A stretch of 64,000 nucleotides of DNA from Octopus sinensis (lineage: Eukaryota). A model generated the notes under the pieces. The model did not search any database and was not told the origin of the DNA. It was given only the letters and a program-made list of their open reading frames with translations. Where the stretch lies: contig NC_042998.1 of NCBI RefSeq assembly GCF_006345805.1, forward strand, positions 191,828,001 to 191,892,000, written 5' to 3'. Shown one piece after another: positions 22,533 through 27,875 of this stretch. The position numbers and the translations under genes were made by a program. The stretch's first letter is position 1, and every line of letters begins with the position of its first letter.

Positions 22533-24748
22533 AAAAACGCTGTTTGAAGGAATACTATGAGCATTTTACGTAGAAGGCCACATGTGTTTGGTAAGGGGCG
22601 CTATGTGTTTACAGGGATTGCAGTGGTTAACAGGCACATATTTTATTGCTTGCAGAAGTTGAGAAGCAAAAATGACTTAGATTTTAAAGTGCAAACGTAA
22701 ATAGTTGTAATTCACTATCACAATTTATGCAATTGTTGAGATTCATCGCCATTTTTCTTCTTATGATTCTATTTGTAAAGTTATATCAATAGAAATATGG
22801 TTCACATAACGCGTCTGCTAATAAAGAACGATTATAACATAATATACGTTTAAAATATATCTAAATATACATTAAAATATAATTGGCTAGAACATTTATG
22901 ATTCAATTAACACCAATTCAGTGTGTTATGAATATATTTTCTGACGTTGCTGTCTTAAAAGCAAGTGAGATTTCAGAATATAGTGAAGTTTATTCTTTAA
23001 AATATAACTGAAGAATATCAATTCTCTTTCTTTTAGGCTAGCATTACATTGTCGTATTTTCTAGTGTTGCAATTTACATTGAAGCTTGAAGCATTTATTG
23101 AATACAGTCACTGAGAAAAATACTTAGAACATTCATTTATCACATTTACAGAAGCCTCCAGTTTTACCAGAATATTAACGAATGTTTTGCCACATAAAAA
23201 ACAGCGGCGTGAGGTACATGTTTGATGCCAAATCAATAGTTACAAGAAAGTTCCAATTATAACCTCGAAAAATGTGTGAGACCGTAATGTAATACAAGAC
23301 GATGACTGACTTTCTGCAATGTGTTCATGGGATCTGCTATAAATCATATATAGTGACCACATATACGTGAAAGCACGTATTGAATAATATATTTCAAGAT
23401 ATAATTTTCCTCGAAGAAATATAGCTTGGTCAGGGTTGGTACGCATTTCATTAAATTGGTGCTCAATACGCTATCAGCTTCTTTAAAATTCCCATTATTT
23501 TACTACAAACATTTTCTAGGTGTTATTGAAACAGAACATTGGATTAAACAGTTAGCAAAAAATATCATATATGTTTTTTTTTACTCTAGTTTCAGCTCAG
23601 AGCTGCGTATATGCTGATGCATCGCCGTTACTTAAAAAATGTAAAATATCACTACATTATAATCATTGCTTTTAAAACCAGAAAGGATTATTCAAATTTG
23701 ATTAAATATCTACTCAGTTTAAGTGATTCAGGAATATACTATATAACTTTTAGGAATATACTATATAGCTAGAAATATAGTACCCACAAGAGTTGTTCTA
23801 TTCCGACAATAAGATCTTCACTTACATAATTAACGAACATACCTGCAACCATGATACATGGCTATGCACTATGTGAATATCTATAGGATGTAGGAGTACG
23901 TACAAAGTAGTGCCCAGAAGTGAGAACAATATCTTATGTAAGTACTCAGGTCTCAATGTCATTTCACACGACCATAGAAATGTGGAGTAAGGTATTTCAA
24001 TAAATACTCGAAGAAAAATATTATGTATCGCAAAATAACATTATGCATCTATACATTTCTTGCAAACTTTAAAACTGGACTAGTGATCTTAATATCACAT
24101 CGCAGTTTTATGGTGGTCCTTTTACAATTCGAGGCGATAGCTACAGAATGCCTACTGAATAAAAGATTCTTAAGCGTTTAAACCACGAAAATACGACGGA
24201 AAATGTCAATAATGTCACTTATCTTAAAAGAATATTATACATGTTATCAGTAGCTTTCCTAAAATATCATCGAACGGGATGTTATTGCTAAAACAACGTA
24301 AAATGATATTCATGGAAAATAATACCCGAGATGATAAACGCTTTTTTTTTCTGTCATGATGCTAGGTAAATACCTCTATTTGAACATTGAGGATATTAGT
24401 TGAGCGTTTTCACAAATAGTTCCGCTAAATAACAGAAACCACACACACACACACACAAAACCCAGTTTAATATAGTTCTTTAGATCAGAAAAGAAATATT
24501 AATATAGTAATATTGCTTAGTAGCCTTGCAAATTTGAACATTTCATTAAAATTACCGAGAGAGAGAGAATGGATATGAATAATATATAAAAGGTACAGCT
24601 TTTCGTGTCACATTATAAATTTACAAACTTGTTCAACAGGATACTTTATACAGTTCTATATTTAAGAGATGAGGAATTATGTACATTATTTATATTATTT
24701 ACATTATTTGCATTTGGCGGATACTTGTCCTCATCTTGTTTTGTTGTT

Positions 24749-24794
24749 AACACAACGTTTCGGCTGATATACCCTCCAGCCTTCATCAAGTGTC
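24749..24794 (-). ncRNA. Minimal type I hammerhead ribozyme motif (C3U variant)
   Basis: GACAC-TTGATGA-A-GGCTG(GAGGGTATAT)CAGCC-GAAAC-GTT-GTGTT. The sister copy at 25106-25117 keeps canonical GACAC-CTGATGA but has lost the 3' half. Confidence 0.75.
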
Positions 24795-24960
24795 TTTGGG
24801 AAATTCCGAACCTGTGGAATGAAGTTAAAATAACAGAGAACAGCATTGGAAAATACGATAACCAAAAGAAGCAGCATATATGCTAGGACACAACAACCTC
24901 CTAAGCAGACCGAGTGCAGATATGAATAGCATATGAGAACCGGTATTAAGGAAGCTCTAA

Positions 24961-25023
24961 GATTGTGTAGTGGTTAAGAGTACGGGCTACTAACTCCAAG
25001 ATTCCGAGTTCGGTTCCAGGCAG

Positions 25024-25025
<2 letters not shown>
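24961..25025 (+). promoter_or_regulatory. tRNA-like segment with Pol III A/B boxes
   Basis: TGTGTAGTGGTTAAG (A box), loop CTACTAA, GAGTTCGGTTCC (B box); imperfect cloverleaf, so not a functional tRNA. Confidence 0.7.
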
Positions 25026-25059
<34 letters not shown>

Positions 25060-25181
25060 TCGAAAATACCTTAGGAATGAGAACCCAGGTTCGAAATTTC
25101 CCCAAGACACCTGATGAAGGATGGAGGGTATAAACAAGATGAGGACCAATATCCGTCAAATGTAAATAAAGATACTTAATA

Positions 25182-25292
25182 TTCACTTATTTTTCGATAT
25201 ATTTAGATGAACGCCGATATCACTTTTTGACATATTTAGATGATCCCCGATATCACTTATTGTTTAACATAGTTAGATGAACAACGATATCC
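25182..25292. repeat. ~33-38-bp minisatellite, 3 copies
   Basis: TCACTT...ATATTTAGATGA...CGATA repeated three times. Confidence 0.8.
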
Positions 25293-25365
25293 ATTCTAGA
25301 ATTTGTGTTTAAAAGATTGCAAATTGAAAGTATAAGCCGTACAATAACACGTGTTTCTCTTACTC

Positions 25366-26583
25366 GGCCGCGAAATTTTTTCCCCCACGAGAGTTCTGAA
25401 CCCCAGTTATGAACTCATTTGCATACAGCCAATCAGAGCTCAAATATCAAACTACTGTCCACCCAGTCACGAAAACACTCTGGTTGAGTTCAGTGTAAAA
25501 TGTGCATTATAGCAAAACCTAACTGTTCTAAACGGGTTTATAGGGGTGAAATTTAGTGTATAAAGTGAATGGAGAACTTTCCCCCGATTATACCATAAGT
25601 GTTGCAAATTTGCGTAATTTACTAAAAAATACAAATGTGTGTAGTTTCCTAATTTTTTGACTGACTCTGTTCATTCCTAATTTAAAATGTTGGTGTTGAT
25701 CTGGAAATATCGTAATCAATATGGCGTTGTGCCGTACTGCGCCCTCCTTGTATATATCAATGGGCACATGCAGTATCACAAATCTCATTCTGAGCCTAGG
25801 TACCTAATGTTAGCTCCATAAAGAGATGGTGCTCAATTGATCTATGAGCACGGTGACGGTGGATGTAGTGCTTATGTGTGACCTCTGTTGTACTCATAGA
25901 GTGACATACACCCTTCTATGCCTCACTGGCTGTACTGTAGTAGTATACAGTATTTTGGTTTTCAAGGTAAACTCTGATTGGCTGTATGCAAATGAATTCA
26001 TTACTGGGGTCCGGAACTCACGTGGTAAACATTTCGTGACGGGTAACGAAATTTTTCCCACGGAAGTTCCGGACCCCAGTAATGAACTCATTTGCATACA
26101 GCCAATCAGAGCTCACCTTGACCTTCTTGTCAAGTTAACAAACACACTCTACCAAGTAAACTCAAGAAGAAGAACGGTGTTGTAAGTCGACCGATCGCCA
26201 AGTTATGCCTGATTTTAGAAGGAGACAAACAATTTGATAGATTTGCATCTATATCCATTATCGGATTTTGTTAGGGCCCAATATGGTAAAGAAGTCAATA
26301 GGAAAAGAGTGGTTAGAGTCTAGTAACTTACTGTTTTACAAAGTAAGCAACAACACAAACTACACAGAGACAGCCATGGTTCAAACTAGAGCAAGAACAA
26401 CAAGCATTATCAAAAGAGAAAAGGAGCATGGGCATTCCTTATCCAAAAGCCCTTATCTTATCGCCCATCACTTGTTATGCGCTGAAAAATTAGCTTGATA
26501 TTTGAGCTCTGATTGGCTGTATGCAAATGAGCTCATAACATGGGGCCGGAACTCTCGTGGGAAAGAAAATCTCGCTACCCGGC
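25366..26583. mobile_element. Unclassified inverted-repeat element(s) with four ~75-85-bp modules
   Basis: The module CGAAATTTTTCCCACG..AGTTCCGGACCCCAG..ATGAACTCATTTGCATACAGCCAATCAGAGCTCA occurs at ~25370-25450 (+), 25962-26036 (-), 26046-26121 (+) and 26495-26575 (-). Confidence 0.75.
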
Positions 26584-27273: not shown

Positions 27274-27504
27274 TATTTCTTTATTGCCCACAGGGGCAAA
27301 ACATAGAAGGGACAAACAAGGACAGACAGAGGGATTAAATCTATTACATCGACCCCAGTACGTAACTGGTACTTATTTAATCGGCCCCGAAAGGATGAAA
27401 GGCAAAGTCGACCTCGGCGGAATTTGAACTCAGAACGTAACGGCAGACGAAATACCGCTAAGCATTTCGCCCGGCGTGCTAACGATTCTGCCAGCTCGCC
27501 GCCC
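27274..27504 (-). mobile_element. Full-length tRNA-derived SINE (family B) with target-site duplication
   Basis: Head GGCGGCGAGCTGGCAGAATCGTTAGC..GAGTTCAAATTCC; central GTCGACTTTGCCTTTCATCCTTTCGGGG; 17-bp TSD AACTTCG(G/A)AAGCATATT at 27257-27273 and 27507-27523. Confidence 0.92.
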
Positions 27505-27644
27505 TAAACTTCGAAAGCATATTGGATTGTAAAATAGTGAAACTCGTGCATGAGAATATATTGAACACATTGCCACGATACGTCTTCAGAAAAGTTAGAT
27601 CACAAAAGCAAAACGACAGCAAATTTAGTAGAACCCAGTTTTAA

Positions 27645-27875
27645 GGTGAGCTGGCAGAATCGTTAGCACGCCGGGCGAAATGCTTAGTGGTATTTCGTCT
27701 GCTACTACGTTCTGGGTTCAAATTCCGCCAAGGTCGACTCTGCCTTTCATCCTTTCGGGGTCGATTAAATAAGTACCAGTTACGCACTGGGGTCGATATA
27801 ATTGACTTAATCCGTTTGTCTGTCCTTGTTTATCCCCTCTGTGTTTAGCCCCTCGTGGGTAGTAAGGAAATAGGT
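27645..27875 (+). mobile_element. SINE family B, full length
   Basis: Reverse-complement match to 27274-27504. A separate family A tail follows at 27907-27970. Confidence 0.92.

Follow-up and report, generated by a model that had tools for sequence, protein, structure and literature searches.

Can a protein-coding retrotransposon carry a tRNA-derived promoter in its own terminal repeat? The question is raised by a locus at positions 24640-25181 of a 64,000-nucleotide (nt) stretch of the Octopus sinensis genome (NC_042998.1, 191,828,001 to 191,892,000, forward strand), the whole of which is called the window here. An earlier note on this DNA had described the locus as the 3' end of a Penelope-like element (PLE), in which a tRNA-like segment with the A and B boxes of an RNA polymerase III (Pol III) promoter stands directly upstream of the hammerhead ribozyme of a pseudo-long terminal repeat (pLTR). 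The locus is a damaged Penelope/Poseidon-type copy that is truncated at the 5' end, carries an inverted arm and is flanked by an 11-bp target site duplication (TSD), and the tRNA-derived part, hereafter the head, opens the pLTR of the family to which it belongs. The sequence features of this family incline us, by a small margin of confidence, to a master RNA transcribed by Pol III, open reading frame (ORF) included.

The genome (2.72 Gb) was searched with 24940-25170 as the query, which gave 3,244 first-look candidates, 40 of which were scored, and the family layout was drawn from loci selected by ORF end, reverse transcriptase (RT), ORF start, head and tail. The order in the family is head (75 nt), (AAT/AAC)n, ATG, minimal hammerhead, tail, ORF body, stop, 30-nt spacer and again head. 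The RT/endonuclease ORF is 2.5 kb long in the family unit, and its first ATG lies inside the pLTR, 5' of the hammerhead. It terminates in ...EPVLRKDRKILDL*, and the head begins 30 nt past this stop. A head was found within 120 nt in 23 of the 29 loci selected by ORF end, and among 29 loci selected by head, (AAT)n comes next in 28 and the pLTR in 25. The linkage of ORF end, head, (AAT)n and hammerhead is real and family-wide, and the tRNA-like part did travel with the element, as the earlier note had supposed. A one-off insertion of a short interspersed element (SINE), which that note had considered as the other explanation, was checked and is rejected on this linkage.

The head also stands in front of complete ORFs. 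In one copy (L073) the order is flank, head, AAT tract, hammerhead, tail, ORF, spacer and head, and among 30 loci selected by ORF start, L133, L145 and L143/L148 (one insertion) begin at the head. The end of a previous ORF is included in the 5' pLTR of L135, L137, L139 and L141. Altogether, eight distinct ORF-bearing 5' pLTRs (L073 included) reach the head start, and four of them start there, while the other four run into the previous ORF. The idea of a promoter for a tandem copy, put forward from the window alone, agrees with this position at the front of full-length ORFs (L073, L133, L145, L143), where the 5' pLTR begins with the head; that Pol III uses it is what we infer below.

The repeat is not a separate SINE, because its head belongs to the pLTR of the element itself, as the 5' end, and is found in that position before full-length ORFs too. 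A 5' head derived from a small RNA, as in SINEs, is present; a non-coding body that shares only its tail with an autonomous partner is not, and the coding element has the complete unit, with the head, as its pLTR at each end. A non-LTR retrozyme was likewise rejected, as cut-site-bounded head-to-tail units were not found among 29 copies selected by tail only, and the copies are solo, inverted or ORF-linked. The SINE or retrozyme mobilised by Penelope that had been proposed for this locus therefore gives way to short copies that are the element's own pLTR. Nor is there support for the small self-cleaving transcript of the 3' end that was once suggested, since the short copies span the hammerhead cut site and, where they are long-tailed, their tail ends at the junction of pLTR and ORF.

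By most of the features tested, the element would be classed as a PLE of the Penelope/Poseidon type. A natural copy (L053) matches Pfam RVT_1 (E 1.2e-9), with a PLE-type RT in a single long ORF, and seven relatives at 52-68% identity carry PF00078/PF26215. The only named proteins among the near relatives lie in one cluster (P0007, 52% identity) and come from the barnacle Amphibalanus amphitrite. A PDB sequence search gave weak RT matches only. In Pfam, no GIY-YIG match to the C-terminal domain of the family was obtained; the domain has a weak profile match (E 1.2e-4, probability 55%, 61 columns) to the Pfam-positive GIY-YIG domain of another PLE, and it bears the motif CVYSIPCSCGRLYKGET..R..EH, which fits the pattern of GIY-YIG endonucleases. 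Partial-tandem and inverted pLTRs, an optional tail and a TSD are present, as in endonuclease-bearing (EN+) PLEs. Judged by eye, the family has no Cys-rich linker between RT and endonuclease, and other PLE families of the genome have one. Three such families (loci L381-L400; for example, L382 1732-4074, plus strand), presumably Neptune-like by their motif, have this linker between RT and GIY-YIG, and several of their copies, with open frames of 700-780 amino acids (aa) and 98-100% identity, look recently active. The family studied here looks old: the identity of its copies to the column majority over the 3' region has a median of 93% and a range of 82-97% (108 matches, not deduplicated), and stops or frameshifts break every copy among the top matches listed. 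Some loci (L328, L329, L330 and L333; L041/L042) show an identical insertion with identical flanks on several contigs and are segmental duplicates or assembly redundancy.

The origin of the head was sought among the tRNAs of the same genome, of which 63 candidates were scored and 11 genes of 8 anticodon types compared, most isotypes lying outside this sample. The family head aligns to these genes with 40-47 identities and z values of 2.9-7.8 against shuffles; Arg-TCT and Ala-TGC were the best, and the highest score was 46/77 (z 7.8). The best match found for it is the head of another tRNA-derived SINE that is abundant in this genome (54/82 columns, z 9.1, at L240; 46/79, z 5.9, at L095), so that a SINE head matches as well as or better than the tRNA genes compared. 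This other SINE, found in the flanks of L095 (2225-2302), L115, L240 and L111, shares the pattern of the first 25 nt with the element head and is a candidate relative of the donor. Its head is like that of the element, but its body and tail are different, and the divergence is too high to name the donor. A cluster of seven tRNA-Cys-type genes within 3 kb (L197 493-3006) was also seen.

By column majority, and with positions counted from the first G of the head as 0, the head carries an A box TGGCGTAGTGG at +8 and a B box GTTCGATTCC at +53, which is the spacing of a tRNA. Both boxes are still consensus in 61 of the 155 distinct heads, as scored with A and B box patterns. The head has no cloverleaf fold, its acceptor and T stems being unpaired. 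A TATAA stands at -34 to -30 and overlaps the stop codon of the upstream ORF, so it is present in tandem copies only; the motif occurs six times in the unit, and its chance per 8-nt window is about 2%. The zone from -31 to -24 is described as aiding type-2 Pol III promoters in the available part of one report (PMC7279448). The TATAA falls inside this zone if the start lies at about -7, a position that would suit RNA polymerase II (Pol II) equally.

The 5' ends of the copies cluster at the head. In a set of 59 loci picked on tail sequence alone (L151-180 and L212-240, with the query copy L211 omitted), the arm reaches the head in 42, the remaining 17 ending in the AAT tract or the pLTR. Eleven of the 42 end inside the head (+12 to +74) and 31 reach its start. 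There, 27 of the 31 stop at -9 to +11, and only four pass (to -36, -199, -388 and -863), whereas 3.0 stops would be expected from the rate within the head (binomial P 7e-24). Copies that start at or near the first base of the tRNA head, for which the earlier note had proposed a test, are thus the rule among those that reach this point. Eight copies without fold-back and with unrelated flanks (L152, L153, L165, L175, L221, L230, L073, L145) start at the head. The same point was checked with reads mapped to a natural copy spanning -220 to +75 (two RNA runs and two contig sets, from three organisms and three studies), and in 4/4 runs the top 5'-side loose ends listed include -7 and +2. The depth of RNA reads rises about 3-fold across the head start, the reads reflecting genomic copies and not an element transcript.

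The sense strand of the element is free of the signal at which Pol III stops. Pol III terminates at four or more T, and runs of four T (T4) number 0 in the 2,701-nt sense strand and 29 on the opposite strand. With synonymous shuffles encoding the same protein (836 codons), 2.9 T4 runs are expected against 0 observed (P 0.029), and T3 runs number 13 against 18 expected (P 0.048). The T4 runs of single copies are private, shared at each site by at most 4 of about 60 copies, and amount to 0.36/kb (103 natural segments, 121 kb), compared with 0.47/kb in the simulated decay of a T4-free master. As controls, the ORFs of the three other PLE families of the genome, with equal T content, have 2.2-4.9 T4/kb in 20/20 cases, rates equal or close to those of their own shuffles, and no A/B box pair was found in 6 kb of these families. 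Among 80 metagenome PLE loci, 14 had an ORF of at least 350 aa; T4 was found in 13 of these 14, and no A/B pair was found within 500 nt downstream of the 14 ORFs (relatives at 25-41%).

The hammerhead of the family is a minimal one in the pLTR, palindromic at 15.2-16.2 and lacking loop 3, its stem III being a loop-less ACGU palindrome. Stems III of this kind are described in dimer-type PLE hammerheads in the accessible part of a previous account (PMC4209133). The core CUGAnGA..GAAACGUH is intact in 54 of the 244 spanning matches, with U (41), A (12) or C (1) at position 7. The copies with CUGAAGA in place of CUGAUGA, which make up 12 of the 54 intact cores and were also noticed in L212-L240, perhaps form a subfamily. 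In nine distinct rows chosen for an intact core, stems I and II are paired in 97.8% of cells, and no compensatory change was found in these same rows. The cut site starts none of 29 copies selected by tail only, the nearest 5' end (L228, read by eye) lying 8-9 nt upstream of it.

We infer Pol III use from the family layout, the head as part of the pLTR, the pile-up of 5' ends and the absence of T4. The fuller account, which we find plausible and stop just short of favouring, is that of an autonomous coding retrotransposon transcribed by Pol III from end to end: it would have captured a tRNA or SINE head, T4 runs would have been purged from its 2.7-kb sense strand, and its uncapped RNA would be translated. 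On the same footing, the start codon would lie behind an A-rich (AAU/AAC)n leader and before the hammerhead, and the solo pLTRs would act as a SINE within their own autonomous element. The RNA would begin at the copy limit, a few bases before the tRNA-like +1 and about 27-28 nt downstream of the TATAA that overlaps the upstream stop codon, and since the sense strand has no T4 terminator, Pol III could read through the whole unit. Further steps are borrowed from the anole element Poseidon_Ac. There, in the part of the report available, the hammerhead region contains the ORF start, reverse transcription is initiated internally, at the tail, and uncleaved RNA, the main template, must continue into the ORF (PMC11167929). 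By analogy, the octopus protein may bind just inside the ORF, and reverse transcription may run from the tail of the uncleaved RNA to the RNA 5' end. On the anole model, the short head-to-tail copies derive from the 5' portion of a longer RNA, and the outcome would be many "solo pLTR" copies that resemble a SINE. The ORF-bearing copies, that of the window included, would start at the second pLTR of an RNA longer than one unit. Such an RNA would lack the 7-methylguanosine (m7G) cap and would require cap-independent translation. As the ATG precedes the hammerhead cut, cleavage would detach it unless the RNA were circularised. The (AAC)n tract presumably resembles the A-rich leaders of viruses. 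Cap-independent translation linked to ribozymes is reported in RNA viruses in the part consulted of a further paper (PMC13725137).

A number of points weigh against transcription by Pol III. The 5' limits of the copies were taken from alignments, in part manually, fold-back pivots being placed at -3, and a start at -7 is indistinguishable in the copy ends from a 5-nt fold-back. A hairpin of the spacer and head start (-17 to +12; -13.4 kcal/mol, in the top 1% of 40-nt windows) lies at the centre of the fold-back junctions that make up many of the 27 stops, so that snap-back priming could add to the pile-up. The extension of four of the eight ORF-bearing 5' pLTRs into the previous ORF means that longer templates existed. 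An index of sequencing runs listed no RNA run containing the element. The RNA data used carry no strand information and their depth tracks the number of genomic copies, and in three such runs of a related organism no pile-up of read starts was found at the head. The T4 test was made post hoc on one family, with P of about 0.03, and its 20 control ORFs come from only three families. Since the clade is poor in Phe (2-3%), the T4 rates across families exaggerate the contrast, and the P value within the family is the fairer measure; runs of four G are likewise absent (0 against 1.05 expected, not significant). A search with one relative (P0005) for a sister subfamily without the head gave only the same family (30/30 loci, 89-94%), which leaves no head-less comparison. 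From previous work, as far as the portions available go, the only dissected Penelope promoter, that of Drosophila virilis, is internal and LINE-like (PMC2377424), and Pol III is considered too weakly processive for autonomous elements (PMC10886601).

These points feed several other explanations of the same copies. Were the RNA to begin at the head by way of Pol II, through the TATAA at -34 to -30, an internal promoter as in D. virilis Penelope, or both, the tRNA-like part would be a captured SINE head that now serves only as 5' untranslated region. The TATAA 27-28 nt 5' of the apparent start suits such a promoter, the known PLE promoters are of the Pol II type and lie in the pLTR (PMC2377424, PMC8557442 and PMC3846280, each in part), and the RNA would have its cap, the pile-up of 5' ends being explained equally well. 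What Pol II leaves unexplained is a 2.7-kb sense strand free of T4 and the coincidence of the start with consensus A and B boxes at the correct spacing, and we regard it as unlikely. The hairpin at the head start offers an explanation that we consider less likely still: the pile-up could mark a site where reverse transcription stops or snaps back and no RNA 5' end, with the promoter elsewhere and the head a passenger. Inversions do often pivot at the loop of this hairpin, and palindromes at the pLTR 5' ends of rotifer PLEs are attributed to self-priming in the section available of that study (PMC3846280). However, stronger hairpins of the ORF halt few copies. One of -14.6 kcal/mol stops 0/18 copies selected by ORF end and 2/67 over all segments, and the strongest (-16.8) stops 4/34 segments, the all-segment sets being biased to long copies; these controls weaken hairpin strength as the cause of the pile-up. 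Moreover, the eight copies without fold-back listed above start at the head, the stops centre on -7 to +5 and not on the 3' base of the hairpin near +12, and the palindrome itself may be the relic of a fold-back at a 5' end that already existed.

Labour could also be divided between the polymerases, Pol III making only the short head-to-tail RNAs as a SINE-like by-product and the mRNA arising where Pol II reads through tandem arrays or host genes. In keeping with this, short copies started at the head far outnumber ORF-bearing ones (only 4/31 pass the head start), one in two 5' pLTRs of ORF-bearing copies extends back into the end of the previous ORF, and the flank has a T run soon after 3'-end copies, as at 25190 after the copy of the window. 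Yet with no terminator between head and ORF, Pol III starting in the 5' pLTR would enter the ORF; the tails of short copies, which end at the pLTR-ORF junction, fit a template extending into the ORF, which is also what the anole element needs; and no separate non-coding lineage was seen. We rate this division a shade below the hairpin explanation. Very improbable, finally, is a tRNA-like fold that acts as an RNase P processing signal, cut at +1, and trims a longer Pol II RNA. Several copies begin at or just past +1, as such trimming would predict, but the head has no cloverleaf, its acceptor and T stems are unpaired, ARAGORN reports nothing in the window, and copies without fold-back begin at -2 to -5 (L073, L145, L230, L133, L093).

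Read against the family, transcribed by Pol III as we slightly prefer, the copy of the window is composed of the following parts.

24640-24650: left TSD, 11 bp, with 1 mismatch to the right copy.
24651-24814, minus strand: inverted pLTR arm with full tail; a 4-nt overlap (24811-24814) joins it to the sense part.
24749-24794, minus strand: minimal type I hammerhead of the inverted arm, with every helix present and core C3 changed to U (UUGAUGA).
24811-24951, plus strand: disrupted 3' end of the PLE ORF, encoding the C-terminal portion of the putative GIY-YIG-type endonuclease; the true stop is deleted.
24952-24964, plus strand: what is left of the spacer that separates ORF stop and head, family positions -31 to -18, containing TAA 24958-24960.
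24965-25026, plus strand: tRNA-derived head, family positions +10 to +71; the A box is cut short, and the B box (25008-25017) carries a single change.
25026-25057, plus strand: (AAT)n tract, a fixed pLTR component of the family, variable in length.
25077-25079, plus strand: ATG that opens the long ORF of the family when the repeat serves as 5' pLTR, upstream of the hammerhead.
25106-25131, plus strand: 5' half of the hammerhead, with GACAC-CTGATGA at 25106-25117; the 3' half (26 nt) is deleted.
25132-25170, plus strand: pLTR tail, which stops short of the longest tail end in the family.
25171-25181: right TSD.

The TSD, the inverted arm, the (AAT)n tract and GACAC-CTGATGA all lie where the earlier note had placed them, the TSD flanking the inverted arm (24651-24814) and the sense part (24811-25170). 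Two deletions relative to the family changed how the rest was read. One of 25 nt (-56 to -32) took the true ORF end, and one of 27 nt (-17 to +9) took further spacer sequence together with nine bases at the start of the head, so that a spacer TAA came into frame and the head seemed to follow the ORF immediately. TAA 24958-24960, taken for the ORF stop, is therefore rejected as such, being spacer sequence where the family ends in the terminus given above, and the adjacency is an effect of deletion in place of a 30-nt spacer. The tRNA-like nature of the segment stands by the alignment of the family head to tRNAs of the genome, but its boxes are not intact here, as the A box lacks its TGGC start and the B box is GTTCGGTTCC. 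The hammerhead that had been pieced together from the two arms equals the commonest form of the family, which occurs intact in natural copies, but both copies in the window are defective, that of the plus strand lacking, at 25131/25132, the 26 nt that supply the GAAA core and the 3' side of stems II and I. Rfam, at E<=10 over 23500-26500, gave neither a tRNA nor a hammerhead, and ARAGORN gave no tRNA in the window, the sequences being too decayed or minimal. In the surroundings, a minisatellite of three copies of 33-37 bp (25183-25300) adjoins the right TSD. At 25370-26575, a repeat of 55-85 bp occurs four times, direct and inverted, with CCAAT- and ATGCAAAT-like motifs, around a possibly coding stretch (26377 on), possibly a small DNA transposon. 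At 27292-27853 lies an inverted repeat of 209 bp, 91% complementary with the arms 144 nt apart, which resembles a miniature inverted-repeat transposable element (MITE) or is another inverted pLTR pair.

Pol III normally makes only short non-coding RNAs, and R2 elements use RNA polymerase I (Pol I). To our knowledge, Pol III promoters have been described in non-coding retroelements only (SINEs, Cassandra, Helenus, Ajax). If true, a PLE with a 2.7-kb coding RNA made by Pol III would break the Pol II rule for autonomous elements, much as R2 does with Pol I, and would bear on the translation of PLE RNA and the role of weak hammerheads. A tRNA head at the pLTR 5' end together with a T4-free sense strand gives a sequence test that can be applied to other genomes. 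The annotation of this genome is also corrected, as thousands of apparent tRNA-SINEs are solo PLE pLTRs.

A full-text literature search gave no tRNA-headed or Pol III PLE, with Repbase, Dfam, subscription papers and supplements, which may contain a family consensus with the head, outside its scope. In the portion available of a 2026 octopus repeat annotation, the text does not mention a tRNA-headed PLE, the repeat library lying outside the comparison (PMC13282606). The known systems nearest to the element are compared here from such portions of their descriptions. Animal non-LTR retrozymes are derived from or related to PLE pLTRs and have type I hammerheads, as here (bioRxiv 10.64898/2026.07.22.740005; PMC7229834); unlike the dispersed solo or inverted pLTRs of the octopus, they are head-to-tail arrays of cut-site-bounded units, and no tRNA head or Pol III promoter is mentioned for them in these portions. 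The Schistosoma Sm-alpha and Sj-alpha repeats (PMC6765202, PMC2770079) are retroposed repeats in which, as in the octopus element, a type I hammerhead lies downstream of a Pol III promoter, but their units resemble SINEs, being tandem and non-coding, and their hammerheads cleave in vitro. In the octopus, promoter and hammerhead together belong to the pLTR of a protein-coding element, stem III has no loop and the copies are not bounded by the cut site. A Pol III promoter derived from a small RNA and placed in a terminal repeat is also found in the TRIMp3 elements Cassandra, Helenus and Ajax, for which the insertion of a SINE is the proposed origin (PMC10886601). These are non-coding, LTR-type and at most 1.3 kb, in contrast to the repeat of a 2.7-kb protein-coding PLE, and their autonomous partners are held to require Pol II (PMC10886601). 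Closest in overall design are anole Poseidon_Ac (PMC11167929) and D. virilis Penelope (PMC2377424), with which the element shares a single ORF of RT followed by an endonuclease (putatively of the GIY-YIG type in the octopus), partial-tandem and inverted pLTRs, a tail, a TSD, an ORF start in the pLTR overlapping a minimal hammerhead, and, by analogy, copies made from uncleaved RNA. Unlike theirs, the pLTR of the octopus element opens with a tRNA-derived head bearing A and B boxes, followed by (AAT)n, and its sense strand is without T4, whereas the PLE promoters described in these sources are of the Pol II type.

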